Assembly (NCBI GenBank): GCA_040218415.1
Contig: JAVJRN010000065.1
Span: 1 to 64,000, forward strand
Source of the DNA: Cyclobacteriaceae bacterium
Lineage (GTDB): Bacteria > Bacteroidota > Bacteroidia > Cytophagales > Cyclobacteriaceae
DNA: 64,000 nucleotides
Direction of reading: 5' to 3'
Of the stretch, positions 24,045 through 41,440 are shown piece by piece; position 1 is the first letter of the stretch, and the number at the start of each line of letters is the position of its first letter. The notes beneath the pieces were generated by a model. It was not told the DNA's origin, made no database searches, and worked only from the letters and a program-made list of their open reading frames with translations. Made by a program: the position numbers and the translations under genes.

Positions 24045-24051
24045 CAAAATT

Positions 24052-25051: not shown

Positions 25052-25447
25052 ATGAACACACATTTCGCAACTGTTAAGGATTATTTGTTAGAACTCGATT
25101 ACACCATCGTTCAAGAGGATGAAAATGATGGGGTTTTGGTAGTAGAAAATGAGGAGGAAGGGATTAAAAATGTAGTACTTATAATCTCTGACCCAATTCT
25201 AATTGTTGAGCAATATCTTTTTGACCTGCCTAAAAACTCCTCGGATATTTACAAAAAACTGTTGGCAAAAAACAGAGATATTATTCATGGGGCATTTGCC
25301 CTTGACGAAACGGGAAATCGAGTGCTTTTCAGAAATACGCACGAATGTGAAAACCTCGACTTGAACGAGATTGAGGCAACCTTGAATTCTTTATCTCTTT
25401 TGCTCAGTGAGTATGCAGATGAACTAATAGGATTCAGCAAGCAATAA
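25052..25447 (+). CDS. YbjN-like (DUF2170/YjfI-like, T3SS-chaperone-like fold) protein
   Basis: 131 aa and acidic. Size and position immediately upstream of a PspA-family gene mirror E. coli yjfI-yjfJ. The assignment is by context and composition, not a confident motif match. Confidence 0.4.
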   Translation: MNTHFATVKDYLLELDYTIVQEDENDGVLVVENEEEGIKNVVLIISDPILIVEQYLFDLPKNSSDIYKKLLAKNRDIIHGAFALDETGNRVLFRNTHECENLDLNEIEATLNSLSLLLSEYADELIGFSKQ

Positions 25448-25473
25448 ATTTTACACAAAAAAATAAAGAAAAA

Positions 25474-26178
25474 ATGAACGTTTTTAGAAGATTATTCAGA
25501 GTAGGGGCGGCAGAAACACATGCTGCGATAGATAAGTTGGAAAATCCAATCAAAATGACCGAACAAGGTATTCGAGACCTTAAAAAAGATCTTGATAACA
25601 GCTTAAGGGCGCTTGCCGAGGTAAAGGCCATGGCCATAAGGGCTAGAAATGATGTGCAAACTAACAAATCAAAGGCGCAAGATTACGAAAGCAAAGCCAT
25701 ACAACTTTTGAAGAAAGCGCAAAGTGGAGAATTATCGGCAGAAGATGCAGATAGACTGGCCACAGAAGCGCTAGCGAGAAAGGAAGAGTTTACACAGGCC
25801 ATGAATGTGAGTAGCGCTGAGCGAGAAAGATTTGATAAGAACGTGGCTCAATTAGATGCAACAGTTAAGAAATTGAAATCAAATATCAGTGGCTATGAAA
25901 ATGAGCTAAGAACATTAAAAGCGCGCGTGAAAGTAAGTGAAGCATCAGCAAAGGTGAACAAGCAAATGGCTCAGATAGATGCTTCCAGCACAGTTTCCAT
26001 GCTTGAGCGAATGAAAGAAAAGGTAACTCAGCAGGAAGCCTTGGCGGAAGCTTACGGCGATATCGCTGGTGAATCAAAGACGTTGGATGATGAAATCGAC
26101 TCGGCTCTTGATGGTAAAAGTGCCAAGGCTTCAGATGATCTAGCCGCAATGAAAGCAAAGCTTGGCTTAGACAAATAG
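25474..26178 (+). CDS. PspA/IM30 (phage-shock protein A / Vipp1 / YjfJ) family coiled-coil protein
   Basis: 234 aa. MNVFRRLFRVGAAETHAAIDKLENPIKMTEQGIRDLKKDLDNSLRALAEVKAMAIRARNDV... is a typical PspA N-terminus and heptad-rich body. Confidence 0.85.
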   Translation: MNVFRRLFRVGAAETHAAIDKLENPIKMTEQGIRDLKKDLDNSLRALAEVKAMAIRARNDVQTNKSKAQDYESKAIQLLKKAQSGELSAEDADRLATEALARKEEFTQAMNVSSAERERFDKNVAQLDATVKKLKSNISGYENELRTLKARVKVSEASAKVNKQMAQIDASSTVSMLERMKEKVTQQEALAEAYGDIAGESKTLDDEIDSALDGKSAKASDDLAAMKAKLGLDK

Positions 26179-26183
26179 TGATT

Positions 26184-26215
26184 ATCATTGGCGATGCATG
26201 TGCATCGCCAATGAT
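26184..26215 (+). terminator. strong palindromic stem-loop 6 bp after the pspA stop (attenuator/terminator candidate, no U-tract)
   Basis: atcattggcgatgca-tg-tgcatcgccaatgat gives a near-perfect 15-bp inverted repeat. Confidence 0.45.
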
Positions 26216-26255
26216 TAAATTCCAAAGACTAAATATTTTTTAATCACAAAAGACC

Positions 26256-26864
26256 ATGACAGAATTGTTAGCATTCGCCATTTCTGGCGTCAACGTTATA
26301 CCTACGATTTTACTAATTTTTACCGTTTTATATTGGTTAATCGTTGTAGTTGGTGTGATCGATATTGATGCTTTGGATTTGGATTTTGATATGGATGGAG
26401 ATTTAAACGGATTAACAAGCGTTTTGTCTTTTTTCAATATCGGGCACATGCCTTTAATGATATTTGTTACGTTTTTTACAATTCCATTGTGGGCGATTAC
26501 ATTGATTTCCAACGATCTTTTGGGTATATCAAGTTTTATAGCCGGATCGTTAATCTTCATTCTGGCAGCAGTGCTTTCTCTTTTTATAGCGAAGTTCTTT
26601 ACCATTCCGATAGCAAAATTTTATCGTAAAATCAGTAAAGAAACCGAAGCAATCAAAAATCTTATCGGACGAGTATGCACTGCTAAGCTGCCTATTTCGC
26701 ATGATAGAAAGGGGCAGGCTGAAATCAAAATCAATGGAACTTCTATACTGATAACCGCGAAGACAAGAGAGGGGTATTTGGTACAGAAAAATGCAACTGC
26801 ACTCATTATTGAATTTCAAAAAGATCAAAATTTTTATTTCGTAGAACCATATCAATTAAACTAA
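26256..26864 (+). CDS. NfeD-like / YqiJ-like (DUF1449) membrane protein
   Basis: 202 aa. N-terminal multi-TM region plus a C-terminal soluble beta-rich tail (...GRVCTAKLPISHDRKGQAEIKINGTSILITAKT...), as in NfeD OB-fold partners of SPFH proteins. Sits immediately upstream of a flotillin gene, like E. coli yqiJ-yqiK. Confidence 0.5.
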   Translation: MTELLAFAISGVNVIPTILLIFTVLYWLIVVVGVIDIDALDLDFDMDGDLNGLTSVLSFFNIGHMPLMIFVTFFTIPLWAITLISNDLLGISSFIAGSLIFILAAVLSLFIAKFFTIPIAKFYRKISKETEAIKNLIGRVCTAKLPISHDRKGQAEIKINGTSILITAKTREGYLVQKNATALIIEFQKDQNFYFVEPYQLN

Positions 26865-26870
26865 CACTCA

Positions 26871-29036
26871 ATGACCGGACCAATTTTTTATGTAGTTATT
26901 GTCATCTCCGCTTTTGTCTTTATCGGACTTATAACGGCTGTTATCAAAATGTACCGCAAGGCTTTACAAGGCCAAGCTATGGTGCGAACAGGAATGGGGG
27001 GCACCATCGTATCTTTTTCAGGAATTTTTGTTGTGCCTATTATTCATAAGCTGGAGGTAATGGATATTACCCTCAAAACAATCATGATTGCCAGAACTGG
27101 CCGAGAGGGATTGATCTGTAAGGACAACATGCGTGCAGATATTAAAGTGACCTTTTTTGTGAGAGTGAATCAAACCGAACAAGATGTAAAGCAAGTTGCT
27201 CAATCCATTGGGAGTCATAGGGCTTCCAGTCAGGAGTCTTTAGAATTGCTTTTTGATGCCAAGTTTTCTGAGGCTTTAAAAACGGTAGGAAAAAACTTCG
27301 ACTTTGTAGAGTTGTATAGCGGAAGAGACAACTTTAAACAAGACATCCTAAATATCATTGGGACGGATCTTAATGGATATATCCTTGATGACTGTGCTAT
27401 CGACTTCTTAGAGCAGACCCCAATGCGGGAGTTGGATGAGAATAATATTCTCGATGCTGAGGGTATCAAAAAGATTATCGAATTAACATCGGCACAAAAG
27501 ATGTTATCCAATCAAATTCTAAGAGAAAAAGAGAAAACATTAACCAAACAAGATGTTGAAGCAAGAGAAACCATTCTTGAGTTAGAAAGGCAACAAGCAG
27601 AGGCAGAGGCCAAGCAAAAACGAGAAATTGAATCTGCACAGGCCAGAGAAGAGTCAGAAACAGCCAAGGTAAAACAAGAGGAGCGACTTAAATCTGAGCG
27701 GGCACGAATAAGTACGGAAGAAAATCTTCATGTCGCAGAGGAGAATAAGCTCCGGGAAGTGATCGTAGCGCAAAAAAATAAGGAACGTACAGAGGCGATA
27801 GAAACAGAGAAGGTTGATAGAGCTAGACTTCTAGAGCAAACAGATAAGCAACGTTTTGTTGAGATAGCGAACATTGAAAAGGAGAAAGCAGTAGAAGAGG
27901 AACGTAAAAATATTCAAGATGTCATTCGAGAGCGCGTCACAATTGAGAAAACGGTTGTGGAGGAGAAAGAACGAATGAAAGATATTCAAGCCTTTGCTGA
28001 AGCTGATAGAACAAAGAAAGTTGCCATTACTTTAGCGGAGCGCGATGCGGAAGAAGCACTCGTCAAAATGATTAAGGATGCAGAAGCAAGGAAACAAGCT
28101 TCAGAGCATACTGCCAAAAAACAATTGATCGATGCGCAAGCAGCAGAAAATGCCGCAATACATCATGCTCAAGCGAAGAAAACCCTTGCCGAAGCGCAAG
28201 CATCAGAAGCTGCCGCTATAGGCTTGTCAGAAGCACAGGTAATGGAGGCTAAAGCAGCTGCCAAGCAGAAAGAAGGGGACTCAGCTGCTTCCGTGATAGA
28301 ATCGCAAGCAGATGCAGAAGCAAAAGGCATACAGCTGAGAGGCTCGGCTCAGGCAAGAGCTGATCAGGAAATAGGTTCTGTGGCGGCTAAAGTTAATTTT
28401 GAGAAAGGAGAGGCCGAGGCAAATATTATCTCATTGAAAGCCGATGCGGAGCAAAAGAGAGGTTTGGCAGAAGCCAAAGTGATGAAAGAGAAGTTTAGTG
28501 CTGAGGCGGAAGGCATCAAAGAAAAAGCCCAAGCAATGAAAGCTCTTGATGACTCAGGTCGATCTCACGAAGAGTTTAAGCTTCAATTACAAATGAACAA
28601 AGAAGTAGAACTCTCTAGAATCTCTATTCAGAAGGAAATTGCCATGTCACAGGCTTCTGTGATTTCTGAAGCTTTGAAAGCTGCGAAAATTGACATTGTA
28701 GGTGGGGAAACCATGTTCTTCGAGCAGATCGTTGGTGCGATAACCAAAGGTAAAACGATTGATCGAATGCTGACTAATAGCGACGTGTTGACCCAAGTTA
28801 AGGACACCTTCTTTTCAACCGCAAATGGTGATAATTTCAAAGAGAGGTTACGTGACTTTGTAGATCAGTTTGGCTTAAATATTCAGGAAGTAAAAGATCT
28901 AAGCGTTTCTGCTTTGCTATTGAATTTGACAGGTAGAGCTTCAAGTGATGGAGAAAAGAACATGATTTCTCAGTTGGGAAAAGTATCCGAGGCACTTGGT
29001 ATCTCTAATCAGAAAATTGCCGATTTAGGATTGTAA
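26871..29036 (+). CDS. flotillin-family SPFH/Band-7 protein (YqiK-like) with long E/A/K-rich coiled coil
   Basis: 721 aa. N-terminal TM, then an SPFH domain (...MVRTGMGGTIVSFSGIFVVPIIHKLEVMDITLKTIMIAR...), then ~400 aa of EA/K-rich repeats typical of flotillin tails. Confidence 0.85.
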   Translation: MTGPIFYVVIVISAFVFIGLITAVIKMYRKALQGQAMVRTGMGGTIVSFSGIFVVPIIHKLEVMDITLKTIMIARTGREGLICKDNMRADIKVTFFVRVNQTEQDVKQVAQSIGSHRASSQESLELLFDAKFSEALKTVGKNFDFVELYSGRDNFKQDILNIIGTDLNGYILDDCAIDFLEQTPMRELDENNILDAEGIKKIIELTSAQKMLSNQILREKEKTLTKQDVEARETILELERQQAEAEAKQKREIESAQAREESETAKVKQEERLKSERARISTEENLHVAEENKLREVIVAQKNKERTEAIETEKVDRARLLEQTDKQRFVEIANIEKEKAVEEERKNIQDVIRERVTIEKTVVEEKERMKDIQAFAEADRTKKVAITLAERDAEEALVKMIKDAEARKQASEHTAKKQLIDAQAAENAAIHHAQAKKTLAEAQASEAAAIGLSEAQVMEAKAAAKQKEGDSAASVIESQADAEAKGIQLRGSAQARADQEIGSVAAKVNFEKGEAEANIISLKADAEQKRGLAEAKVMKEKFSAEAEGIKEKAQAMKALDDSGRSHEEFKLQLQMNKEVELSRISIQKEIAMSQASVISEALKAAKIDIVGGETMFFEQIVGAITKGKTIDRMLTNSDVLTQVKDTFFSTANGDNFKERLRDFVDQFGLNIQEVKDLSVSALLLNLTGRASSDGEKNMISQLGKVSEALGISNQKIADLGL

Positions 29037-29046
29037 TTATTGCTCA

Positions 29047-29080
29047 AAAGTCAGAGATCGCAAGACTCTGACTTTATTTT
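29047..29080 (+). terminator. hairpin plus T-rich tract between the flotillin gene and the giant ATPase gene
   Basis: aaagtcagag-atcgcaaga-ctctgacttt followed by atttt. Confidence 0.35.
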
Positions 29081-29094
29081 CCATCAAAAATTTT

Positions 29095-32000
29095 ATGGCA
29101 CAAGAATCAAGCAACACTTTGGAGGCAGGAACCTACGAGTTATTACGTAGTAGAATTGTGTCTACTGCCAATCAGCTCAAATCGCAGATACAAAAACTTA
29201 ACGAGGAACGGAAAAATGTTTTCGGTACCATCGAAACAAAAGTTCTGGCCTCCGAGCGTATAACTACGAATAACAATTGCATTCCGTGGGATATGTTTTC
29301 TTTCGGATCAAAGTTTCTCTTCGGATACAATGTGCATGTGGGGCTAAGAAGTGAGGTGAAGATTGATGATGTCTTTAGTTTTTATGAATACCAATCGGAC
29401 CATACATTTCATGAGCTCAACCTTAATTCGATTATAACCGATAGTGTTTTTCTTGACGATTTCCATAAACTATACAAATACTACAAAAACACCCAATTCT
29501 TACGGTTTGCCTCTGTTGGGCCATTTTTTCACATGGTTTTTCGAACTGGAAAGGACGTTAATGACGTCAAGACTTTCAAGTGGCAGATCAAAGAAGAAAA
29601 GCTGATTTATATTGATAATCGCAGTGATCATGAATATAAATTTCCAGCACAATACGAGTTTGAGTGGAAAAGAACCCGACGGCAAGATTATCGTGATGGG
29701 CTACATCCGCATGTGTCGATAGAGGACCGAGTTTTTGTCGAATGTGTTGGAGGAGATTTAACCATTAAGGTAGAAGACAATACTGATGATGGTCAAGGTA
29801 TTTATAGGGAAGATGTAGTTAATTCACTGCAGACACTTGATGATGCCGAATTTAGCTATTCTGTAGTTGGAAATTTGATATTGATAAAGGCTAAACCATA
29901 CCAAGAAGGTGAGCGGTATTTTGTCTTTAACGAAAAATTGAAGGAAGTAAAACGGATAGACACCCTGTCCGAATCGGGCATATTATTGCCTGATAATCAA
30001 GGATTGATATTTAGTAACGGCTATTATTTACAGTCTGGAGAGTTCAAGTTGTTTGATTTAAGTCTTCGTCACATGCTCTTCGAAAGGCGCATCACTTCCC
30101 TGAATGGAGAGGATTTTATTTATGTCTTTTACAATAGAGAAAAGGGTATTTATCTGCTGCTGAACTATAATATTATATCTCAAAAAGTAGAAAATCCGAT
30201 TGTTTGCCATGGTTTTACCACTTTTGAAAATGGCGAAATGTGCGTTTTTAAAGCAGATGATGAACCTAAAAAACACCATGCTATTCAAATATGGCAAACG
30301 CCTTTTACAGGCGTAAACTTTCAGGCCGAAGAAAAATATGATTCTTTTTTGCAGAAAATCGGCAATAAGGAAGTCGTACGTGCCATGGCGGAATGTCAAG
30401 AAATCATCAATCTCATTCATCGAGAGGAGATTTATTCAGATTTATACATCGATATCATTAAGAAAGCTACCGATACGATTGATACCTATCATTGGCTCAA
30501 CACCGAGGGGTATGACTTGGATGCACCGCTCAAAGAAATTCGTGGTGTGGCAGAATCTGCGGTAGATGAATACGAAAAAGTACGGAAAATTCGAGAGACC
30601 TCTGAGCATCGATTAGCAGAATTGGCCGAGTTACACAGCCAGATACTAAAAAAATCGAAAGCTTCTTTTGGGAAAATCACAGCTTATGTAAGTCTTCTTG
30701 GCGAGATAAGGTCGGTAAGAGGAGAGGTCATAAGTGCCAAGGATCTAAGATATATTGATCAGAAAAAACTTGCGTCATTTGATGCTGACTTATCTGAAGC
30801 AGCTGATAATGTATCAGAATCATGTGTGAGATTTCTTGCACAGGATCATGCTTTGAAACCTTTTCATGATAAAATAGTCGAGTTTAAAACGAAAATAGAT
30901 CAAATAAAAAAGGTAGTTGAAGCCAATGAACTACTCCAATCAGGAGAGCAAATTGCGCAGGAGTTAGACCTTTTAATTGAAACTGTAAGCAATTTAAAAA
31001 TTACAGATGCCACACAAACAACAGCCATCATTGAAGGTATTTCGGATATTTATGGAAGCTATAATCAGGTAAAAAATAAACTTTCGAATATTAGAAAAGG
31101 TCTGCTTGAATCGGAAGGTAAAGCGGAGTTTAATGCAACAATCAAGCTCTTGGAGCAAAGCGTATCCAATTATTTGGATATCTGTGACACCCCAGCCCAA
31201 TGTGACGAATACTTGACGAAGTTGATTGTGCAGGTGGAGGAATTGGAAGGAAAATTTTCTGAATTCGACGAGTTCATTGACTTGATTTCTCAAAAGCGTG
31301 AAGAGGTATACAATGCCTTCGAATCAAAAAAACTCTACCTAACCGAGCAAAGAAACAAAAAGGCAAATCAGCTATTTCAAGCCGCTGAAAGAGTTCTGAG
31401 CGCCATTCGCAATAAGTCCGGTACGCTCAAATCCAAGCAAGACATCAATGGTTACTTTGCTTCAGATTTAATGGTGGAGAAAATCAGATCGATTTCCGAT
31501 CAACTACTTTCGATAGGAGAGACTGTAAAGTCGGACGACTTAACCAGTCAGTTGAAAACGATCAAGGAGGATGTGCTGCGTCAATTAAAAGACAAACATG
31601 AACTTTTTGCTGCTGGAGACAATATTATGCAGATGGGAAACCATCAGTTTTTCACGAATAACCTCACGCTTGATTTAAGCATGGTAGTGAAAAATAAAGT
31701 ACCACATTATCACCTTGCAGGAACAGATTTTTACGAGGTGATAAAAAACGACCAACTCGCCGCACTTTCTCATCTCTGGGATCAATCGTTGATTTCCGAA
31801 AACAGTGGTGTATACCGTGCTGAGTATTTGTCTATTTCGCTTTTTGAGTCAATGAGATTGTCAAAACTAGTCCATGAAGAAAAGACGATCAGTTTAGAAA
31901 CTTACCAATTGATGAGTGAAGCGGAAAAAGTGTTTTTTGTGCAAAGGCAAATGGCTACTCGTTATGGCGAGGGCTACATCAAGGGTGTTCATGAATTTGA

Positions 32001-33981
32001 TACCCTCTTGATTCTAAATGAAATCATTTCTCTCAGCCAGTTTGCTGGTCTATTAAAATATGATCCTGACGTAAGAGCTCTGGCAAAATTTTTCTGGAAT
32101 TCTTGCATAGCTGACGAGACTAAAAAGCTCTATGAACGTCAGATAAAAGCTGCGGCACTCATTTTATCCGTCTTTCCTTATTCGAGGGAATTCGAAGGGA
32201 TTGTCAATGACTTGAAAAACGAGGTTCAATCTCAGGAACCAAAGTTTTATGATGTCAAAACAGACTACTTAGCGGTTGCGCAGTATATTTTCGATCAGTT
32301 TTCCGAAGGAGATTATTTTATTGTCAGTCAAGTAGCGTCCGAGTGCCACCAACTCTTTTTGAATCATTTAAAGCAAAGCAAAGCCGATACCCAATTTACA
32401 GCTTCTTTGAAAGGCCTTAGCGATACGCCTGCCTTGTCTATGAGGATGATCCGACAGTGGCTTTCCGCGTTCATTAAGGAAATTGACCAACCTCATTTTT
32501 TGGATTATGCTGATGAAGTCGCTGCGCTGTTATTTTATGAAGATTACAGTGAAATTTATGTCAAAAAAGTAAGTCTATACAAGACAATCGAAGGCTTAAA
32601 AGGCTCACACAAATTAATAGAAGATGGGAAATACACTTTTCATCTAAATAATTTTTTCAAAAGATTATCAGCGTTTATCAGGGTAGATGTTCCTGCTTTT
32701 AAGCAGTTAGCGGCCCTTAAAAAGAGCTTATCTGAAGACTATCGTACTGAACTAAGACTTCATGAGTTTAAACCGCGTGTACTCTCTTCTTTTGTTAGAA
32801 ATCAGCTGATCGATAGTGTTTATTTCCCGCTAATTGGAGCTAACCTAGCCAAGCAAATAGGAACAGCCGGAGAGAATAAGAGAACCGATTTAATGGGTTT
32901 GCTTTTGCTAGTTTCTCCGCCCGGCTATGGTAAAACAACGCTTATGGAGTATATCGCCAGCAGGCTTGGGGTTATTTTTATGAAGATCAATGGACCAGCC
33001 ATTGGTCACGAAGTGACTTCATTAGATCCTGCTGATGCGCCGAACGCTGCTTCTGCTGAGGAATTACAAAAGCTGAATTTGTCTTTTGAAATGGGCAATA
33101 ATGTGATGATTTATCTGGATGATATCCAGCATTGTAATCCCGAATTTCTTCAAAAGTTTATCTCCATGTGTGATGCGCAGCGCAAAATCGAAGGAGTATA
33201 CAAAGGCAAGACCAAAACATATGATTTTCGTGGAAAAAAGGTTTGTGTAGTCATGGCAGGCAATCCTTATACCGAGTCTGGAGATAAGTTTCAAATTCCA
33301 GATATGCTTTCCAATCGAGCAGATATTTATAATCTTGGTGATGTCATAGGAGACTCTGAAGAGGCTTTTAAAATGAGCTACATTGAGAATTGCCTTACTT
33401 CTAATCAAATTTTAAGTCGTTTGGTGTCGAAAAGCCTTTCCGATGTTCGAACTGTTATTAAGTTAGCAGAGCAAGGTTCTGGTGAAGGACTAAAATTTGA
33501 AGTCAACCACACAGCTGAAGAACTTCAGGAATATGTTTCAGTTATTAAGCATTTGATGAGGGCTAGAGATGTTGTACTCGCCGTGAACAGCCAGTACATC
33601 GCATCAGCGGCGATGGCTGAGGAGTATAGAGTAGAGCCTGCTTTTAAACTCCAAGGGTCATATCGAGACATGAATAAGCTTGCTGAAAAAATACTCCCTA
33701 TGATGAATGAAGCTGAGGTGGAGACAATCATACAATCGCACTACGAAAATGAGTCACAGACCTTGACATCAAATGCGGAGGCGAATTTGCTGAGATTTAA
33801 ACAACTAACTGGAGTGCTGAGCCCAGAGCAATCTGATCGTTGGCGGTATATTATTGGCGTTTTCGCTGAAAAGCAAAAGCAATTAGGCTATGGCCAAAAC
33901 GCAAAACTTGTCGAGGGTATTGATGCTATTGCCAACAATCTCAAAGGAATATTGGATAAAATACAACAGAATAAACCTTAA
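29095..33981 (+). CDS. giant (1628 aa) protein with a single C-terminal-third MoxR/AAA_5-type AAA+ ATPase module; N-terminal ~1250 aa of unknown function
   Basis: Uninterrupted 4.9-kb ORF. Walker A ...LLLLVSPPGYGKTTLMEYIA... (nt ~32.92 kb). Walker B ...NVMIYLDDIQHCNPEFLQKF.... Sensor-1/Arg region ...KVCVVMAGNPYTESGDKFQIPDMLSNRADI.... This order and spacing is typical of AAA_5/MoxR/dynein-type modules. I recognise no motif in the rest. Confidence 0.7.
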   Translation: MAQESSNTLEAGTYELLRSRIVSTANQLKSQIQKLNEERKNVFGTIETKVLASERITTNNNCIPWDMFSFGSKFLFGYNVHVGLRSEVKIDDVFSFYEYQSDHTFHELNLNSIITDSVFLDDFHKLYKYYKNTQFLRFASVGPFFHMVFRTGKDVNDVKTFKWQIKEEKLIYIDNRSDHEYKFPAQYEFEWKRTRRQDYRDGLHPHVSIEDRVFVECVGGDLTIKVEDNTDDGQGIYREDVVNSLQTLDDAEFSYSVVGNLILIKAKPYQEGERYFVFNEKLKEVKRIDTLSESGILLPDNQGLIFSNGYYLQSGEFKLFDLSLRHMLFERRITSLNGEDFIYVFYNREKGIYLLLNYNIISQKVENPIVCHGFTTFENGEMCVFKADDEPKKHHAIQIWQTPFTGVNFQAEEKYDSFLQKIGNKEVVRAMAECQEIINLIHREEIYSDLYIDIIKKATDTIDTYHWLNTEGYDLDAPLKEIRGVAESAVDEYEKVRKIRETSEHRLAELAELHSQILKKSKASFGKITAYVSLLGEIRSVRGEVISAKDLRYIDQKKLASFDADLSEAADNVSESCVRFLAQDHALKPFHDKIVEFKTKIDQIKKVVEANELLQSGEQIAQELDLLIETVSNLKITDATQTTAIIEGISDIYGSYNQVKNKLSNIRKGLLESEGKAEFNATIKLLEQSVSNYLDICDTPAQCDEYLTKLIVQVEELEGKFSEFDEFIDLISQKREEVYNAFESKKLYLTEQRNKKANQLFQAAERVLSAIRNKSGTLKSKQDINGYFASDLMVEKIRSISDQLLSIGETVKSDDLTSQLKTIKEDVLRQLKDKHELFAAGDNIMQMGNHQFFTNNLTLDLSMVVKNKVPHYHLAGTDFYEVIKNDQLAALSHLWDQSLISENSGVYRAEYLSISLFESMRLSKLVHEEKTISLETYQLMSEAEKVFFVQRQMATRYGEGYIKGVHEFDTLLILNEIISLSQFAGLLKYDPDVRALAKFFWNSCIADETKKLYERQIKAAALILSVFPYSREFEGIVNDLKNEVQSQEPKFYDVKTDYLAVAQYIFDQFSEGDYFIVSQVASECHQLFLNHLKQSKADTQFTASLKGLSDTPALSMRMIRQWLSAFIKEIDQPHFLDYADEVAALLFYEDYSEIYVKKVSLYKTIEGLKGSHKLIEDGKYTFHLNNFFKRLSAFIRVDVPAFKQLAALKKSLSEDYRTELRLHEFKPRVLSSFVRNQLIDSVYFPLIGANLAKQIGTAGENKRTDLMGLLLLVSPPGYGKTTLMEYIASRLGVIFMKINGPAIGHEVTSLDPADAPNAASAEELQKLNLSFEMGNNVMIYLDDIQHCNPEFLQKFISMCDAQRKIEGVYKGKTKTYDFRGKKVCVVMAGNPYTESGDKFQIPDMLSNRADIYNLGDVIGDSEEAFKMSYIENCLTSNQILSRLVSKSLSDVRTVIKLAEQGSGEGLKFEVNHTAEELQEYVSVIKHLMRARDVVLAVNSQYIASAAMAEEYRVEPAFKLQGSYRDMNKLAEKILPMMNEAEVETIIQSHYENESQTLTSNAEANLLRFKQLTGVLSPEQSDRWRYIIGVFAEKQKQLGYGQNAKLVEGIDAIANNLKGILDKIQQNKP

Positions 33982-33985
33982 AAAA

Positions 33986-34135
33986 ATGACCATTGAATTA
34001 TTAAAGTCTATTTTAATCATCATCGTCGTTATTTTCCTTTTTGGACTCCTATTTAATGTTTTATTTCGAGTTGGATTGATTTTAATGATTTTGCTGGGCA
34101 TACTTTATTTGTTCAAAAAGGTATTTGTTGAGTAG
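33986..34135 (+). CDS. 49-aa hydrophobic two-TM peptide
   Basis: Track ORF 33890..34135 overlaps the end of the giant gene. I trimmed it to the ATG 5 bp after the giant gene's stop: MTIELLKSILIIIVVIFLFGLLFNVLFRVGLILMILLGILYLFKKVFVE. Confidence 0.3.
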   Translation: MTIELLKSILIIIVVIFLFGLLFNVLFRVGLILMILLGILYLFKKVFVE

Positions 34136-34157
34136 TACTTAAGAAAATAAGAAAAAC

Positions 34158-34703
34158 ATGTTTAATCTATTTAAGAAGAAAAAAGAGGAGCCATTGTACG
34201 ATGTTACAAACCTCAGCGTGAAGGATCTCGATGTGGGATTTGTGTTTGATTATGACATGAAATCTTGGATAGTCAAAGAAGTTCTAGAGTACGATTGGGG
34301 CAACAATAATTTTACGCGAGAGTATAAAGTAGATAGTGGTGATGAGGTTCGGTTTCTCGAAGTGGAGGATGATGACGAGTTGTTCATTGTTTTGTCCAAT
34401 TCCATTAGCCTTAGGAAAATAGAAGAAGACGTGGCGGAAAAAATCCGGAAAAAAGGCAAATCACATAAGAAAATTCAGTTTGAAGAGGAAACTTATTTCT
34501 TGGAGGAAGAATCAGCTGGATATTTTAAAAGTGCTGCCAAAAAAGGAGATGATTGGGAGGAGTTTATAACCTGGCAATATTTGAATGAAGAAGAAACCCG
34601 TGTCGTATCTTTGACACAGTGGGATGAGCAAAACATTGAAGCTTCGGCAGGGATAGTGGTAAAACCTTATCAGATATCTAACATAACACCAAGCGGAAAT
34701 TAA
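34158..34703 (+). CDS. DUF4178-like protein
   Basis: 181 aa. Two beta-rich half-repeats with W/Y-rich cores (...KSWIVKEVLEYDWGNNNFTREYKVDSGDEVRFLEVEDDD... and ...WEEFITWQYLNEEETRVVSLTQWDE...) resemble the DUF4178 pattern as I remember it. The PspA / DUF350 context supports this. Not profile-verified. Confidence 0.4.
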   Translation: MFNLFKKKKEEPLYDVTNLSVKDLDVGFVFDYDMKSWIVKEVLEYDWGNNNFTREYKVDSGDEVRFLEVEDDDELFIVLSNSISLRKIEEDVAEKIRKKGKSHKKIQFEEETYFLEEESAGYFKSAAKKGDDWEEFITWQYLNEEETRVVSLTQWDEQNIEASAGIVVKPYQISNITPSGN

Positions 34704-34740
34704 TATGCTTCGATTGAACTAAAAACACAGTAATATTCAT

Positions 34741-35469
34741 ATGAAATACCAAATTCTAAAATATTTATGCTTGTTTACTTTGGCGTTTTTCGTCTCTTCA
34801 TGTGGAGGTCCAAAGTATCAAAAAAATCCTTTAGATGTAATTGCTCGCGACTTGCCTAGTGATAAGCCTTTCACAGCGATACTCTATGACATGGATGTAA
34901 AAGGTAATTTTATAGAGACGTATTATCATCAATATAAAATTGTGCAAGACGATGGTAATGGAAACTTAGACGAGTTCACCACAGGAATGCTCGAAGTGAG
35001 TAAGGAAACATTCAACAAGCATATCAATGACATGGGAATGGAGCTCATGGCGCGAGATAGCACGGGTCAGTTGAGTAAAGGGGCTGCACCTCCGGGTTAC
35101 AACAATTATGTAGGGAATGAAAAATATGGCCAGTGGAAAACCGACAATAGCGGCAATAGTTTTTGGGCTTTTTACGGTCAATATGCTATGATGTCAACCA
35201 TGTTTAATATGATGGCTTACCCTGCTCGTAGAAGTTACTACAACGATTGGCGAGGAGGCTATGCGGGAACTGGTCGAGGTTATTATGGGCCGTCAAATGG
35301 TGGAAGCAGCTACTATGGCACTAATAGCGCTCATGGCCGTAGTACAAAACCTAGTTCAAGTTGGAGCAAAAAGAGATCTTCATTTAGACAAAATGTAGCT
35401 TCTAGAACCTCGAGATCATCTTCGAGTTCAAGTGGATATCGTTCCCGAAGCGGATCCTACGGAAAATAA
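34741..35469 (+). CDS. lipoprotein with Gly/Tyr-rich region and Ser/Arg-rich C-terminal tail
   Basis: 242 aa with lipobox (...FFVSSCGGPK). C-terminus is ...SRTSRSSSSSSGYRSRSGSYGK. Possibly the YdjH/DUF4247-type lipoprotein partner of PspA loci (inference). Confidence 0.5.
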   Translation: MKYQILKYLCLFTLAFFVSSCGGPKYQKNPLDVIARDLPSDKPFTAILYDMDVKGNFIETYYHQYKIVQDDGNGNLDEFTTGMLEVSKETFNKHINDMGMELMARDSTGQLSKGAAPPGYNNYVGNEKYGQWKTDNSGNSFWAFYGQYAMMSTMFNMMAYPARRSYYNDWRGGYAGTGRGYYGPSNGGSSYYGTNSAHGRSTKPSSSWSKKRSSFRQNVASRTSRSSSSSSGYRSRSGSYGK

Positions 35470-35499
35470 ACCTTACCATCCAACCTCACTTATCATCCA

Positions 35500-36360
35500 A
35501 TGCAAATACTCGATAACGTACTTACTAGTCTCACCTACATTGTTGCCAGTTTTATTCTTTTTTTTGTTGGGAAGTTGGTTTATCAACTTTTTCATCCAAA
35601 AATTAAAGTGGCTCATGAGCTGGTTGAAAAGGACAACCTAGCATTTTCCGTTGCGCATGTTGGCTATTTTGTAGGGCTCCTATTGGCTATAGGCAGTGCA
35701 GTGATGGGCGAGTCGTATGGTTTGGTCAATGACTTGATCAATATTGGTATTTACGGTGCGCTATCTATCGTGCTACTCAACCTATCGTTGATCATCAATG
35801 ATAAGTTGATTTTATCAAAATTTGACTTAAAGAAGGAAATCATAGATGATCAGAACTTGGGTTCTGGTATTGTAGAAGGTGCCAATGGGATCGCTACAGG
35901 ATTGGTGGTATTGGGCGCCATACATGGTGAAGGATTTGGGGTTGGCGGACCGATAGTCACTGCTGTCTGTTACTGGATACTTGGTCAGTTGATTTTATTC
36001 ATTACCACTTTCGTGTATAATGCCATCACTCCATACGATATTCATGAGCATATCGAAAAGAAAAATACCGCAGTGGCCATCGGCTATGCAGGCGCTATTA
36101 TTGCCATTGCGAACCTGATCCGTTTTGCATTGATGCATGATTTTGAAAGCTGGGTGATTACTCTACAGGACGTAGCAATAGATGTGACGATCGGGTTGAT
36201 ATTTTTGCCAATCGCACGTTTTGTTACCGATAAAATATTGCTTCCAGGACAAAATATTACTGATGAGATTGTGAATCAAGAGCATCCTAACTGTGGAGCT
36301 GCGCTGGTGGAGGCATTCGCATATATTGGTGGTTCAGTATTGATTTGTTGGGCGTTATAG
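35500..36360 (+). CDS. membrane protein with two DUF350-type repeats (YjfL-like)
   Basis: 286 aa polytopic. Each repeat carries the DUF350 signature: ...LFHPKIKVAHELVEKDNLAFSVAHVGYFVGLLLAI... and ...AITPYDIHEHIEKKNTAVAIGYAGAIIAIANLI... (compare the E. coli YjfL pattern TPY-x-EEI-xxGN-AvA). Confidence 0.55.
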   Translation: MQILDNVLTSLTYIVASFILFFVGKLVYQLFHPKIKVAHELVEKDNLAFSVAHVGYFVGLLLAIGSAVMGESYGLVNDLINIGIYGALSIVLLNLSLIINDKLILSKFDLKKEIIDDQNLGSGIVEGANGIATGLVVLGAIHGEGFGVGGPIVTAVCYWILGQLILFITTFVYNAITPYDIHEHIEKKNTAVAIGYAGAIIAIANLIRFALMHDFESWVITLQDVAIDVTIGLIFLPIARFVTDKILLPGQNITDEIVNQEHPNCGAALVEAFAYIGGSVLICWAL

Positions 36361-36364
36361 ACTT

Positions 36365-37900
36365 TTGAAATACACCAGCACTTTACTTAAGGTTGCCTTA
36401 TTTGCTACTGGTTTATCCGGTATTGTTTCCGAATACACTTTATCCACTCTTGCCACATATTTCTTAGGAGACTCTGTTTTCCAGTGGACAATGATTGTTT
36501 CGGTCATGCTTTTCTCCATGGGCCTGGGGAGTCGATTGAGTAAAAAATTTGAAACGAACCTTATGGAGCGTTTCGTTCTCATCGAATTCGGATTATCGTG
36601 TATCGCATCTAATGTTACCTTGATTGTATACTCAGTATTTGCTGTCTACGGACAAACTGCCATTGTTATCTACGGGCTTTGCATCACTATTGGTCTATTT
36701 ATCGGGATGGAAATTCCCATCGTTATCCGACTCAACGAACAATTCCAAAGTCTTAAAGTCAATATATCTTCCGCACTGGAAAATGATTATTATGGGAGTT
36801 TAGCAGGAGGTGTTTTTTTTGCATTCATCGGCTTGCCATATTTAGGCTTGACGTATACGCCTCCAATTTTAGGAGCCGTCAATTTCTTTGTGGCTTTGGT
36901 ACTCATCTATGCTGTATGGGAGGAAGTTAAAGCCCAGAAGAAACGATTCATTCTATATTCTGGCATTGTTTTGCTCATTCTACTTTTGAATCTCATTTTC
37001 TCACAGCGAATCGTTGAGTGGGGAGATAAAATCAGGTACCAGGATAGAGTCGTTTACAGTGAGCAGAGTCGATATCAGAAAATAATTTTGACTTATGACA
37101 GAGGTGATTTTTGGCTTTTTCTCAACGGACATCAACAACTGAGTTCCTTTGATGAGGCCATGTATCACGAACCACTCGTGCACCCTGCCATGTTACTTCA
37201 GGGAGACACACGTCGAGTTTTGGTTTTGGGTGGGGGAGATGGTGCAGCAGTCCGAGAAGTATTGAAATACGAACAAGTCGAAGAAATTACCTTGGTCGAT
37301 CTTGATCCGGCGGTTACTTCGCTCGCGTCTAATCACTCCGCCTTGGTTCAAATCAATAAAAATTCGCTAGCAGACCCAAAAGTGCGAATAATCAACCAAG
37401 ACGGGTTCACTTTTTTGGCAGATATAACAAAAAAGTACGATGTAATTATCGCAGATTTTCCTGATCCTAGAACTGTAGATTTGGGTCGGTTATATTCTTT
37501 GGAGTTTTATCAATTATGCTACGCTGCATTGACCCAACATGGTGTGTTTGTTACTCAGGCCGGAAGTCCATATTATGCAACACAGGCTTTTCATTGTATT
37601 GAAAAAACCATAAAAGCAGCCGGTTTCAATCCATTGCCCTTGCACAATCAAGTAGTGACCTTGGGCGAATGGGGCTGGATCATAGGCGTTAAAAACTCTC
37701 GTAAAAACCTTCAGCACGCTGTGCAAAATTTATCATTGGATCATGTGCAGACGGCTTGGCTTACGGAAGATGCACTCACACTGATCAGCTCGTTTGGTGG
37801 GAAGATATTTGATCAGCCAACTGAGTTGATTGAAATCAACAGATTGCATGATCCGGTACTTTTCAAATACTACATGAATGGACGTTGGGATGTTTATTGA
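36365..37900 (+). CDS. membrane-anchored polyamine aminopropyltransferase (spermidine/spermine synthase, N-terminal polytopic domain + C-terminal SpeE domain)
   Basis: 511 aa. ~200 aa of TM helices, then ...RVLVLGGGDGAAVREVLKYEQVEEITLVDLDPAV... (GGGDG dcSAM motif) and ...YDVIIADFPDP..., the SpeE hallmarks. Starts 5 bp after the DUF350 gene. Confidence 0.75.
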   Translation: MKYTSTLLKVALFATGLSGIVSEYTLSTLATYFLGDSVFQWTMIVSVMLFSMGLGSRLSKKFETNLMERFVLIEFGLSCIASNVTLIVYSVFAVYGQTAIVIYGLCITIGLFIGMEIPIVIRLNEQFQSLKVNISSALENDYYGSLAGGVFFAFIGLPYLGLTYTPPILGAVNFFVALVLIYAVWEEVKAQKKRFILYSGIVLLILLLNLIFSQRIVEWGDKIRYQDRVVYSEQSRYQKIILTYDRGDFWLFLNGHQQLSSFDEAMYHEPLVHPAMLLQGDTRRVLVLGGGDGAAVREVLKYEQVEEITLVDLDPAVTSLASNHSALVQINKNSLADPKVRIINQDGFTFLADITKKYDVIIADFPDPRTVDLGRLYSLEFYQLCYAALTQHGVFVTQAGSPYYATQAFHCIEKTIKAAGFNPLPLHNQVVTLGEWGWIIGVKNSRKNLQHAVQNLSLDHVQTAWLTEDALTLISSFGGKIFDQPTELIEINRLHDPVLFKYYMNGRWDVY

Positions 37901-37953: not shown

Positions 37954-38634
37954 ATGAAAAAAAGCGAGATGGATTTTCAAAAATTATATGACTTTTTACG
38001 AGAATTAAATACGAGTGACAACAACGATAAAAGCTGGATGGACGATCATCGTGATGGATACGAAGAAGTCCGAGACAGTTACATTTCGTTTCTTGATGAC
38101 CTAAACTCATATTTTAAACAAACAGATCCTAACTACCAGGACACCACTGGGCGAAGAGCGATCAATCGGATCAATAACAATAAAATGTTTCATCCTGAAA
38201 AACCCACTTATAAAGATCATTTTGGGGCTTCATTGGATAAGGCTGAAAATAAGGCTGAATTTTATATTCATCTAGGGATAAATACCTCATTTGTAGCGTG
38301 TGGATTTTATCATGTGCCGAACGACAAACTGAAATTAATCCGTCAAGAAATTGATTATAATGGAAGCGAGCTAGAAAAAATTCTTAATCATCAGGATTTC
38401 AAAAAAACCTTTGGAGGTCTTTGGACAGGCGATTCTTTAAAAACTTCCCCTAAGGGCTATTCAAGCGATCATCCAAGAATAGAGTGGATCAGATTAAAAA
38501 GTTTTGTGGTGCAAAAAGACTTCACCGAGCACGAAGTGGTCAATGGAGGATTTAAAGAACAATTGATTCAACTTTATGAACTCATGCTTCCTTTCAGAAG
38601 GTTTTTGGATATGGCTGTAGATGAACCAGCATAA
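37954..38634 (+). CDS. DUF2461 (TIGR02453-like) family hypothetical protein
   Basis: 226 aa. ...FQKLYDFLRELNTSDNNDKSWMDDHRDGYEEVRDSYISFLDDL... and ...FYIHLG...FVACGFYH... resemble the TIGR02453 family. Not profile-verified. Confidence 0.5.
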   Translation: MKKSEMDFQKLYDFLRELNTSDNNDKSWMDDHRDGYEEVRDSYISFLDDLNSYFKQTDPNYQDTTGRRAINRINNNKMFHPEKPTYKDHFGASLDKAENKAEFYIHLGINTSFVACGFYHVPNDKLKLIRQEIDYNGSELEKILNHQDFKKTFGGLWTGDSLKTSPKGYSSDHPRIEWIRLKSFVVQKDFTEHEVVNGGFKEQLIQLYELMLPFRRFLDMAVDEPA

Positions 38635-38638
38635 TTAA

Positions 38639-39784
38639 TCAATCTCTGATGAAATAGTCCGTTTTCCCAAAAGCAAGCATCATTTTCATGGCTTGCTGAT
38701 TCCACCAAATACCCTGAATATTTTCTGGCAGATCAAGTAGTTTTTTTCTCATCTCCCCCTGAGTCATTGATTTGCTTGCCAGCATCCATGACACTTGTCC
38801 CATAGTTGGAACTTGGGTATGATAAGGCAATACTTCGTAGGAAAGTGTTTTTATTAAATTTTGACGTTCCTTAAACAGTTTCGCTTGTAGATATGGATTT
38901 CCCGATTGGAAAACAATAATTCCTTCAGGCAGCAACATCGGTTCTATTTTTTGTATAAAAGCAATCAGCCCATCATTAGGAACCTCTTGGTCGATATAAA
39001 TGATATCAAAAGTGGAAGAGTCAGCGAGATACTGGTTCAACTTTGCCTCAACGATTTTCGAACCAGTAGTAATCTCCAAAATGCCTTCATTTTTAGTCAC
39101 AAAATCAAAGTACTTATTGTCGAAAGGAGCAATCGAGATATGACTGACTTTTTTCGACTGATTCAGTTGGTCGATGATGAGATGATTGTCGCCTCCGATG
39201 ATCAAAACGTTGGCTGGTTCTGTTTTTAAATAAAGTGCTGGAAGCGCATATGCTTCAGCCAATAAGTGTTTGTCTAAAGTAGAAAACTGCAATTTTCCCC
39301 CATAATGTAGCCAGAAATCATCTTTCCATTCCACTATTTGCGCATCTGCGAATGTGGTTTTTTTTGAGTCTATGACTTTGTCAGTAAAATATTTTTGAGA
39401 GGGAGGCATGGAGTATGGGATAAACCAAACGCCAACGAGCATACCGATACCCAGAAAGTGATTCCTGATTTTTTGTGTTTGACCTATGGCATAGCTACAG
39501 GCGATGGCAACTATAAAAATACTCATCCAACTCTGATTGTAACGCGTGATAAGTTCTGCAACAATAGGCTGAAGCAGTAAAGGAAAAATAAGCGGGATCA
39601 GTAAAAACACTACTTTAAAAAGGTCATTAACTTGATACCGACTTCCTAACCACCAACTAGCCACCACAGTAAAAAATAGTGCGATTTGGTTAGCTAATTC
39701 AAATGGAAAATAAAATTGGTAGATATGAAAGCACCATGTAAAAAGTAGGGCTAAATAAACAAGTTGAGGAAGCTTTTCTTTCAC
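38639..39784 (-). CDS. second membrane-anchored aminopropyltransferase-like protein (divergent; degenerate dcSAM motif)
   Basis: 381 aa. N-terminal TM helices, then ...NVLIIGGDNHLIIDQL..., ...ISIAPFDNKYF... and ...FDIIYIDQEVPNDG.... The architecture is SpeE-like, but the GGGDG box is replaced by GGDNH. Confidence 0.5.
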   Translation of the reverse strand: MKEKLPQLVYLALLFTWCFHIYQFYFPFELANQIALFFTVVASWWLGSRYQVNDLFKVVFLLIPLIFPLLLQPIVAELITRYNQSWMSIFIVAIACSYAIGQTQKIRNHFLGIGMLVGVWFIPYSMPPSQKYFTDKVIDSKKTTFADAQIVEWKDDFWLHYGGKLQFSTLDKHLLAEAYALPALYLKTEPANVLIIGGDNHLIIDQLNQSKKVSHISIAPFDNKYFDFVTKNEGILEITTGSKIVEAKLNQYLADSSTFDIIYIDQEVPNDGLIAFIQKIEPMLLPEGIIVFQSGNPYLQAKLFKERQNLIKTLSYEVLPYHTQVPTMGQVSWMLASKSMTQGEMRKKLLDLPENIQGIWWNQQAMKMMLAFGKTDYFIRD

Positions 39785-39787
39785 GCC

Positions 39788-40090
39788 TTAAACAGATGAA
39801 ATGGCGAGATCAAAATAGGAACCAATGTTTCTTTTGAAATCCAAATACATGGTTTCATTGCAACTACTCAACTCAAGGTAGGATTTATTTTCCTCAGGAA
39901 ATGTGTGCAAGGCACAATGGCTTTCCGCCAATAACCATAAGCCTGTATAGCCTTGTGGTTCGAAATGATGGTCAATGTAGTTGAGTATCGTAAAACCAGA
40001 CTGCTCCAGAAGTTCAACAATTCTAGACTTAATGGTGTCTTCGTTACATCCTTTTATCCAAGTATTATAGTTATCTATTTTCGCTTCCAA
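39788..40090 (-). CDS. speH: S-adenosylmethionine decarboxylase proenzyme (small Bacillus-type, pyruvoyl-dependent)
   Basis: 100 aa. ...FEPQGYTGLWLLAESHCALHTFPEEN... carries the self-processing Glu-Ser site (ESHxxxHTFPE). Its stop is 4 bp upstream of the 38639..39784 gene's start, consistent with operon/translational coupling. Confidence 0.8.
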   Translation of the reverse strand: MEAKIDNYNTWIKGCNEDTIKSRIVELLEQSGFTILNYIDHHFEPQGYTGLWLLAESHCALHTFPEENKSYLELSSCNETMYLDFKRNIGSYFDLAISSV

Positions 40091-40392: not shown

Positions 40393-40836
40393 TTACGAAT
40401 CAATCAATGCAATTTTACGATCGTTAAAAATAGATTTTAATGCTTTCAGGTCTATATCGCGTGTCACTTCAACCCAGCAGACTTTCATCTCTTTGACATA
40501 GCTCTGACCTGCCAACCAAGTCCTATACCCAAAATGATTTGCCACGTTTTTTAGCTGATCACGATCAGTCTTGCGTTTACCTCTTATTAGATTTTGAATT
40601 TCCTGAAGTACTTTCGAGGATGATCCAACAATTACTGGATTATTCCGATAGGAATAGATAACGAATAGCCCTTTAAAATCTTGAAGGTGACCGGTTTCAA
40701 ACTTTAATGTTTCGATTCCATTACCATGCTTGAAAAACAAGTTCATTGGAAATCCATTGAATTTGAACTGTTTGATAAAATCTATTTTACCCTTAAGTCT
40801 TTTCGATATTGTCTTATTGATCGTCAATTGTTCCAT
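40393..40836 (-). CDS. hypothetical protein with GIY-YIG-like nuclease motif
   Basis: 147 aa. ...FKGLFVIYSYRNNPVIVGSSSKVLQEIQNLIRGKR... resembles the GIY...YIG...R core. A downstream Glu candidate is present (...WVEVTRD...). Weak call. Confidence 0.35.
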   Translation of the reverse strand: MEQLTINKTISKRLKGKIDFIKQFKFNGFPMNLFFKHGNGIETLKFETGHLQDFKGLFVIYSYRNNPVIVGSSSKVLQEIQNLIRGKRKTDRDQLKNVANHFGYRTWLAGQSYVKEMKVCWVEVTRDIDLKALKSIFNDRKIALIDS

Positions 40837-41044: not shown

Positions 41045-41440
41045 ATGAGGACTATGAAAAATGAAATATTGTTGATTTATGATTCCAATGACTTTCAAAA
41101 CAGGGAAACCAAAGGTTATGCGAAAGCCTTGAGCGATCATAAGATCAAAGAAATAGATCTGTCAAAAGACTCACTTACTGAAAAGCAGATAGGTCAATTG
41201 GCAGAGAGGCTTGGCGGGATCAATGCGATAATCAATAAAAATAAGGCAAAATTTCAAGATCAATTCGCAAATAGCGGAATGGAAGAAGGAGATTGGTTAA
41301 AGGTACTCTCCCAAAACCAAGATTTGATTAAGAGTCCAGTTGCACTGTATCCAAACACAGCAGAGTTTATTAATTCACCTTATGAATTTTTGAGAAAGGA
41401 TATGAACGACAATAAGCACAGTTTTTCCTACCAGAAATAA
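41045..41440 (+). CDS. ArsC/Spx/YffB-family-like thioredoxin-fold protein lacking the catalytic cysteine
   Basis: 131 aa. The ILLIYDSNDFQNRETKGYAK...IKEIDL...LTEKQIGQLAERLG...LIKSPVAL pattern parallels YffB/ArsC (ITLYGIKNCDT...), but the Cys positions are Ser/Asn. Confidence 0.4.
   Translation: MRTMKNEILLIYDSNDFQNRETKGYAKALSDHKIKEIDLSKDSLTEKQIGQLAERLGGINAIINKNKAKFQDQFANSGMEEGDWLKVLSQNQDLIKSPVALYPNTAEFINSPYEFLRKDMNDNKHSFSYQK

Follow-up and report, generated by a model that had tools for sequence, protein, structure and literature searches.

Bacterial operons that pair a CesT/Tir-like chaperone gene with pspA have been sorted into major groups, the first of which carries a flotillin/AAA+/YqiJ gene set and the third an ATP-grasp set of the Escherichia coli type that includes YjfL (Ravi et al. 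2024, mSystems, PMC11237479). The second group, exemplified by AAN56744-AAN56747 of Shewanella oneidensis, brings a CesT/Tir-PspA pair together with genes for a DUF4178 protein, a lipoprotein, a DUF350 protein with eight transmembrane helices (8TM) and a spermine/spermidine synthase that carries a 7TM-transporter-like domain. The same authors, citing Li et al. 2019, propose a coupling of PspA-based membrane dynamics with the concentration of polyamines or with 'aminopropylation of other substrates'. Here, we focus on this gene set in a Cyclobacteriaceae metagenome-assembled genome, within a stretch of 64,000 nt that we refer to as the window. Five tightly packed + strand genes at 33986-37900, located where a preliminary description of the window had placed them, encode a 49-amino-acid (aa) peptide, a DUF4178 protein, a lipoprotein, a tandem-DUF350 protein and a 511-aa enzyme (36365-37900) in which a membrane domain is fused to a SpeE domain; they form the tail of an operon that has the CesT/Tir-like chaperone and PspA at its head. 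Judged from its gene content, this region forms the effector end of an envelope-stress operon of the PspA (IM30/ESCRT-III-like) kind, and the residues of the enzyme suggest that it most likely uses decarboxylated S-adenosylmethionine (dcAdoMet) to aminopropylate an amine other than putrescine, at or through the membrane.

Related systems share parts of this layout. The yjfIJKLMC operon of E. coli encodes a PspA-family protein (YjfJ), a CesT-like protein, a DUF350 protein (YjfL), a lipoprotein and a polyamine-related enzyme, as the window does, but its enzyme is an ATP-grasp ligase (YjfC) related to glutathionylspermidine synthetase and is accompanied by DUF1190 and DUF2491; domain scans found no ATP-grasp glutathionylspermidine-synthetase-like ligase, DUF1190 or DUF2491 among the operon genes of the window. 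The Mycobacterium tuberculosis cluster Rv2597-Rv2601 belongs with the window by its enzyme, which is of the same PRK03612 family, and has Rv2599, Rv2600 and Rv2601 in that order. Clusters in which a domain of the major facilitator superfamily (MFS) type is fused to a SpdSyn-like domain reportedly occur in thousands of genomes, together with a functional class 1b S-adenosylmethionine decarboxylase (AdoMetDC) and DUF350; the species concerned are said to be without spermidine, and an E. coli speE mutant was reportedly not complemented. The window resembles this MFS-SpdSyn cluster in the fusion, whose N-terminal domain is of MFS type, and in the AdoMetDC and DUF350 genes; it differs in that its MFS part is only a half-transporter of ambiguous topology. 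Actinobacterial clusters have DUF4247 and DUF2617 in place of the CesT/PspA and lipoprotein genes of the window (PMC11237479), and one locus of the sample described below (L085) shows their DUF4247-DUF350-SpeE pattern. The architecture has therefore already been published (Ravi 2024; Li et al. 2019), and a curated NCBIfam model exists. The functional idea of the preliminary description, in which polyamine synthesis at the membrane is part of an envelope-stress response, was reasonable in outline and had been anticipated in print, and its comparison with the YjfL/ATP-grasp operon agrees with that of Ravi et al. 2024 (PMC11237479). We found no later literature that resolves the substrate of the enzyme.

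The window departs from the second group in several ways, some of them new. Its CesT/Tir-PspA dyad is split from the effector module by first-group genes (YqiJ-like, flotillin-like and beta-propeller AAA+), so that the two groups are joined in one 11-gene operon. A conserved two-helix membrane micro-protein of 49 aa precedes DUF4178, the regulator is divergent and XRE/S24-like rather than ribbon-helix-helix (RHH), and the AdoMetDC gene stands apart from the operon, next to a degenerate SpeE paralogue. The predicted half-MFS N-terminal domain with conserved buried acidic residues is also new. The co-directional + strand cluster spans 25052-37900, with gaps of 4-77 nt, and is put at 11 genes, ten of which are itemised in table 1. 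The link to envelope stress is thus stronger than had been claimed, since the genes are tightly spaced on the same strand behind the CesT/Tir-PspA, YqiJ-like, flotillin-like and DUF3686 AAA+ genes; the earlier statement that the genes are fused does not hold, because they are separate neighbours in one operon and only the membrane and SpeE domains are fused to each other.

The conservation of this arrangement was followed in 80 loci, one genome per species and nearly all from Bacteroidota, to which the closest relative (L001, with an enzyme 83% identical) was added to give 81. The loci were retrieved with an alignment of 13 enzyme sequences, which yielded almost only Bacteroidota, and their open reading frames (ORFs) were scanned with the proteins of the window across a flank of 10 kb, which limits the PspA count. 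As a rule the genes come in the order DUF4178 > lipoprotein > DUF350 > enzyme, and the module is present in about 50-57 of the 81 Bacteroidota loci. A lipoprotein gene was found in 66 loci, DUF4178 in 60, AdoMetDC in 49 and PspA in 35, while DUF350, whose co-occurrence with membrane SpeE had been proposed as a check, lies immediately upstream of the enzyme in 57; lipoprotein, DUF4178 and DUF350 are all missing from eight of the 71 loci with enough upstream DNA. Upstream of the module the operon takes either a short form, in which a divergent XRE gene is followed by CesT and PspA, or a long form, seen in 11 loci and in the window, with an insertion of YqiJ-like, flotillin-like and AAA+ genes. 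The AdoMetDC homologue of relatives usually follows the enzyme directly or is placed between the PspA and DUF4178 genes, and in many it is inside the operon. Six distant relatives were sampled additionally, and half of them (3/6) have DUF350 directly upstream of the enzyme; their arrangements include AdoMetDC-DUF350-...-SpeE, DUF4247-DUF350-SpeE (the mycobacterial pattern) and DUF350-SpeE-DUF4178 beside Band_7/SHOCT. Because the same gene order recurs across Bacteroidota, and partly in distant relatives, the gene arrangement is far beyond chance. In genomes of Flavobacteriales and Aquimarina (L064, L066, L067, L069-L071, L074, L077), two membrane SpeE paralogues, both of full length and apparently intact, stand back to back, and just one of the two is part of the PspA-AdoMetDC-DUF4178-lipoprotein-DUF350 operon.

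By its profile match, the last gene of the operon is a polyamine aminopropyltransferase of the PRK03612 type, with a SpeE domain on a predicted half-MFS membrane domain: it scores 546.2 bits against NCBIfam NF002956/PRK03612 (polyamine aminopropyltransferase), where the cutoff is 472, and residues 4-509 cover profile positions 18-519 of 522. Translation starts at the TTG at 36365, 4 nt after the DUF350 gene rather than the 5 bp first given, and the conservation of residues 8-51 in homologues supports this start. The family is large (802 clusters at E 1e-30, 17,444 at E 1e-3), and its members are typically 500-600 aa long. The best relatives in the PDB are aminopropyltransferases of Pyrococcus horikoshii, Pyrobaculum calidifontis, Pyrococcus furiosus and Thermus thermophilus, and the closest solved relatives (Pyrococcus, Pyrobaculum, Thermus) are broad-specificity agmatine/triamine enzymes. 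Soluble SpeE proteins (Thermotoga maritima 1INL/1JQ3, P. horikoshii 2E5W, T. thermophilus 1UIR/3ANX) have the same fold at 25-33% identity and share the cofactor and catalytic residues, whereas the enzyme of the window adds a 225-residue membrane domain and a C-terminal extension of approximately 65 residues, and has lost the acceptor-site Tyr. The catalytic motifs, GGGDG at 289-293 and DVIIADFPDP at 359-368, had been described as intact, and alignment of the dcAdoMet-binding residues to T. maritima SpeE (1INL) bears this out: Q46, Y76, H77, D101, D170 and D173 are kept, and only E121 is changed, to Asp. The counterparts of D101, D170 and D173 are D292, D364 and D367; these, like all cofactor and catalytic residues of the enzyme, are invariant in 64 diverse homologues reaching down to 31% identity, the set on which each statement about invariance in the enzyme is based. 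The Asp of GGGDG, equivalent to T. maritima D101, is the residue that recognises dcAdoMet.

The acceptor site is less canonical. Its Tyr (in the P-x-Y-P-x-G motif), which we take to be the equivalent of human Y241, is replaced by Thr in the sequence VTLGEWGW, and the family consensus VPSFGxWGF has Phe. In addition, the enzyme falls below the cutoffs of the canonical spermidine synthases (TIGR00417, 166.3 versus 249.55; PRK00811, 188 versus 260). Both points make an ordinary product such as spermidine doubtful, and with it the earlier reading of the enzyme as a membrane-tethered synthase that makes spermidine or another standard, longer polyamine at the membrane; we regard this as unlikely. It also counts against this reading that Bacteroidota normally obtain spermidine or homospermidine in other ways, as do the reported absence of spermidine and the reported lack of complementation for MFS-SpdSyn fusions. 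An ordinary synthase would fit the intact GGGDG, catalytic Asp and distal-amine Asp, the linkage to AdoMetDC and the NCBI family name 'polyamine aminopropyltransferase', and a title cited in PMC11107197 refers to surface-localised spermidine that protects the outer membrane of Pseudomonas aeruginosa; the phrase 'aminopropylation of other substrates' (Ravi et al. 2024, PMC11237479) points away from it.

The AdoMetDC homologue, which is class-1b-like and lies 1.9 kb downstream of the enzyme, is the presumed supplier of dcAdoMet and keeps the Glu-Ser cleavage site, the His and the Cys of T. maritima AdoMetDC. It is located 3 nt upstream of a second membrane SpeE gene, mSpeE2, and these two genes converge on the PspA operon. 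In mSpeE2 the GGGDG motif has become GGDNH, YHE has become LAE, the ribose-binding acid Pro and DxxDP DQEVPN. Its clade is tiny and fast-evolving (approximately six database relatives), and within it the decay of the cofactor site follows a conserved pattern, with GGGDG replaced by GGD(N/S/T)G and the acid by Pro, and with the loss of Q238, D346 and the acidic residues of the membrane domain. From these changes, mSpeE2 is probably non-catalytic and looks like a pseudo-enzyme partner. Its presence next door lends something to the idea that the enzyme itself serves as a sensor or scaffold without being catalytic and that its SpeE domain would bind dcAdoMet or a polyamine and report this to the PspA machinery; Ravi et al. 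2024 (PMC11237479) indeed raise the possibility that the system would 'monitor polyamine concentration'. The contrast with mSpeE2 makes this very improbable, since the paralogue shows relaxed selection whereas every catalytic residue of the enzyme is invariant in the homologues. The AdoMetDC pair is flanked by a 147-aa ORF at 40393-40836 (- strand) that matches no family and a 131-aa ORF at 41045-41440 (+ strand) with only a sub-threshold match to ArsC (E 0.019). The DUF2461 gene at 37954-38634 was considered as a member of the system and rejected, as it is common to only one relative.

A SpeE-like domain also occurs in a methyltransferase. The fungal N-terminal histidine methyltransferase NHMT (AN4663; bioRxiv 10.1101/2022.10.03.510680) has seven TM helices up to residue 215 followed by a SpeE-like domain and modifies secreted proteins in the endoplasmic reticulum (ER); it resembles the enzyme of the window in its membrane domain (likened by layout), SpeE-like domain and C-terminal extension, and in its tie to secreted or envelope substrates. 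Residues 280-445 of the enzyme (37204-37699), its Rossmann core, match the mad2 profile of PADLOC at E 4.2e-18, which we judge to reflect a shared fold only. The match and the NHMT-like architecture would fit a methyltransferase, like NHMT or the mad2 product of the MADS system, or an anti-phage defence module, but this is hardly credible. The mad2 match is confined to profile positions 290-447 of 492, PADLOC detected no other mad genes apart from a weak mad8-like AAA match (E 9.5e-4), and the neighbourhood is of a housekeeping kind and conserved across the phylum; a defence system was rejected on the grounds of the partial match and the absence of the remaining mad genes. Furthermore, NHMT has Ile in the GxG(D/E)G motif and transfers methyl, whereas the window enzyme, linked to AdoMetDC, keeps Asp292, the GxGDG residue that separates aminopropyl- from methyltransferases.

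The membrane domain of the enzyme was called a polytopic N-terminal domain of approximately 200 aa in the preliminary description; it is indeed polytopic and is nearer 215 aa in length. It contains six or seven helices within residues 1-226. AlphaFold models of the full enzyme (pLDDT 85, pTM 0.74) and of residues 1-228 (pLDDT 82, pTM 0.80) place helices at 5-34, 37-59, 66-95, 99-126, 134-183 and 192-226, and the six-helix model of the N-terminal domain superposes on the six-helix halves of MFS transporters. TM1, TM3, TM4 and TM5 each carry approximately one conserved buried acidic residue (E23, E74, E116 and D141), which, as modelled, suit a cationic ligand. The catalytic domain is somewhat more likely to be cytoplasmic than not, because the cofactor is made in the cytoplasm and the structure models show six helices.

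The explanation that we favour, and hold tentatively, is that the region is the effector end of a PspA operon and that the enzyme is an aminopropyltransferase with its catalytic domain in the cytoplasm. AdoMetDC would produce dcAdoMet, and the enzyme would probably form a dimer, since its membrane domain is a half-transporter and SpeE enzymes oligomerise, and the two half-MFS domains would together make up a cavity like that of a transporter. The aminopropyl group would be passed to an amine other than simply putrescine, and the cationic product or substrate would then reach the outer side of the inner membrane through the acidic membrane cavity, the DUF350 protein or both. Together with the lipoprotein, it might at that site alter the charge or stability of the envelope, while PspA, the flotillin-like protein and the AAA+ ATPase would repair or remodel the membrane.

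A number of points weigh against this explanation. The acceptor amine is putative, and the dimerisation and transport steps are pure inference. The enzyme retains D367, the anchor of the distal amine of putrescine, which leaves room for an ordinary diamine acceptor. The AdoMetDC homologue does not reach the cutoff of TIGR03330 (50.6 versus 75.65), and homologues of AdoMetDC can be arginine or ornithine decarboxylases (PMC10407285). Promoter and terminator scans of the operon gave results no better than shuffled sequences and were thus uninformative about co-transcription. Finally, the positive-inside rule disagrees with the six-helix model: in the 64 homologues, the N-terminus and loops 2-3, 4-5 and 6-7 together hold 11.1 Lys and Arg residues per protein, compared with 0.9 in loops 1-2, 3-4 and 5-6.

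This charge bias predicts seven helices, with the N-terminus inside. If residues 144-184, a 41-residue hydrophobic stretch with a conserved Pro and Gly at its middle, were a helical hairpin, there would be seven helices and therefore a periplasmic SpeE domain. The half-MFS domain might then carry dcAdoMet, a dication, outward for the modification of an amine on the envelope side, such as a lipid head group, peptidoglycan or a lipoprotein; such a periplasm-facing aminopropyltransferase is possible, if on the whole somewhat doubtful. It would also account for the reported failure of complementation in the E. coli speE mutant. The loop at 185-194 is rich in Lys and Arg and variable in length (3-55 aa), the membrane domain is called 7TM by Ravi et al. 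2024 (PMC11237479), and fungal NHMT combines seven helices with a SpeE-like domain that acts on secreted proteins in the ER. Against this, both AlphaFold runs draw 134-183 as one unbroken helix, which gives six helices, and it is the six-helix model that matches the MFS halves; moreover, dcAdoMet is not known outside the cytoplasm. A weaker objection is that M. tuberculosis Rv2601 was not scored as exported in the EXIT library despite 35 in-frame BlaTEM fusions, the vector being promoterless and Rv2600 also unscored. Covariation, analysed by mean-field direct coupling analysis of 343 homologues (approximately 241 effective sequences), was contradictory and too noisy on both helix number and contacts between the domains: pairs 76-196, 117-177, 78-174 and 16-174 and a cluster linking 186-197 with 58-69 favour seven helices, whereas pairs 7-213, 130-227, 120-224 and 100-197 oppose them and a TM5-TM6 hairpin signal is absent. 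The search for loop insertions at the TM5-TM6 turn was uninformative, as the region is of fixed length. The proposed topology check of the N-terminal domain has therefore confirmed that it is polytopic and has left a conflict between six helices (AlphaFold) and seven (positive-inside). A fuller version, in which the acidic half-MFS ferries dcAdoMet to a periplasmic SpeE domain that aminopropylates an envelope component under membrane stress, perhaps with mSpeE2 as a partner, is in our view rather unlikely.

Table 1. Features of the PspA operon and its flanks, with positions in the window.
Feature	Position	Strand	Evidence
HTH_3 (XRE-type) regulator, divergent, with weak Peptidase_S24-like C-terminal domain	24087-24941	-	Pfam HTH_3 E 3.5e-12; S24 E 1e-3 (below cutoff)
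CesT/Tir-like chaperone, first operon gene	25052-25447	+	PF22550 CesT_Tir_1 E 3.7e-53, full length
PspA/IM30 family protein	25474-26178	+	PF04012 E 5e-42
202-aa membrane protein, tentatively YqiJ/NfeD-like	26256-26864	+	3-4 hydrophobic helices; sub-threshold YqiJ_N E 0.16
721-aa N-terminally anchored coiled-coil protein, tentatively flotillin-like	26871-29036	+	sub-threshold NCBIfam FloT E 1.6e-4
1628-aa DUF3686 + DUF7902 + AAA+ ATPase	29095-33981	+	PF12458 E 3.8e-181; PF25472 E 9.7e-25; PF00004 E 7.4e-7
49-aa two-helix membrane micro-protein	33986-34135	+	conserved translation in relatives
DUF4178 protein	34158-34703	+	PF13785 E 6.5e-19
Lipoprotein: globular domain and Tyr/Gly/Ser/Arg-rich tail	34741-35469	+	signal peptide; lipobox V-S-S-C21
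Tandem-DUF350 (YjfL-family) polytopic membrane protein	35500-36360	+	PF03994, two stretches, E 9.4e-55
Enzyme, N-terminal membrane domain (residues 1-225): predicted half-MFS fold and linking helix	36365-37039	+	
Enzyme, aminopropyltransferase (SpeE-fold) catalytic domain and C-terminal extension	37040-37900	+	PF01564 E 2.9e-42
mSpeE2, degenerate membrane SpeE paralogue	38639-39784	-	PF01564 only E 3.5e-12
AdoMetDC homologue, class-1b-like	39788-40090	-	PF02675 E 4.8e-16

The domain and lipoprotein calls that had been made for the genes upstream of the enzyme were confirmed by hidden Markov model profiles for DUF4178 and DUF350 and, for the lipoprotein, by its signal peptide and a lipobox with an invariant Cys (table 1). 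The 49-aa peptide is very hydrophobic, and its ATG lies 4 nt past the stop codon of the AAA+ gene. Conservation of its protein sequence extends to 15 relatives detected by phmmer and two more found by eye, which include both short and long operon forms, and it has the motif F.LF(K/R)(V/I)G(I/L)I...LY..KK.F; in L001 it is annotated as a gene. There, an extra 501-aa gene without a Pfam match (6278-7783), absent from the window, stands between the micro-protein and DUF4178. The DUF4178 protein is predicted to be cytoplasmic, because it is without a signal peptide, membrane helix or any hydrophobic segment. The lipoprotein, whose Cys21 is invariant in 34 homologues, has no relative in Pfam, NCBIfam or the PDB, and none of its 453 homologues is named. 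Ravi's second group has a lipoprotein with a 'Ctha_1186 domain', with which the lipobox and gene position in the window would be compatible, while Pfam and NCBIfam return no match for the protein. The tail of the lipoprotein (residues ~155-242; 35200-35469) is of low complexity and yet strongly conserved, and numerous Tyr, Gly and Arg residues in it are invariant, which is unusual for a region that looks disordered. Searches of solved structures gave nothing useful for the DUF4178 protein, the lipoprotein or the flotillin-like protein.

At the head of the operon, the flotillin-like and YqiJ-like labels rest on sub-threshold matches combined with gene position. The position of the 202-aa gene agrees with the first group of Ravi et al. 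2024 (PMC11237479). The 721-aa protein matches nothing in Pfam or the PDB, and its gene is kept together with the AAA+ gene in 11 of the 81 loci. The same divergent HTH_3 gene precedes CesT in 20 related loci, and its product may be a repressor of the operon, for which it is a candidate on the basis of its domain and position. Inspection by eye of the S24 Ser/Lys dyad in this regulator, whose C-terminal domain is weakly LexA/S24-like, found the Ser present and apparently Arg at the Lys position. Adjoining the regulator gene, at 23972-24077, are a tRNA-Lys (anticodon UUU) and then a strong terminator-like hairpin, and a scan of the 64 kb for RNA families (Rfam) found no riboswitch, the sole match being a tRNA. 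Further out lie genes for an SRAP (SOS-response-associated peptidase) protein at 22371-23120 (- strand) and a FAN1-HTH/VRR-NUC nuclease at 54492-56141 (- strand). The remainder of the window is of a housekeeping nature (LptD, amidase, MlaD, carboxyltransferase and an MscS-like channel), and no other polyamine gene was seen in it.

Operons of this kind are widespread, including in pathogens such as M. tuberculosis (Rv2597-Rv2601), and they tie membrane repair by PspA to aminopropylation derived from S-adenosylmethionine. The half-MFS fold, the four buried acidic residues, the conflict over topology and the pseudo-enzyme paralogue provide handles for experiments. If the catalytic domain does face the periplasm, the enzyme would represent an extracytoplasmic group-transfer system derived from S-adenosylmethionine and would be the bacterial counterpart to NHMT, the fungal 7TM methyltransferase that resides in the ER. 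The identity of the acceptor would explain why AdoMetDC is kept by thousands of bacteria that do not make spermidine, and could reveal a new envelope modification of relevance to resistance against cationic antimicrobials.

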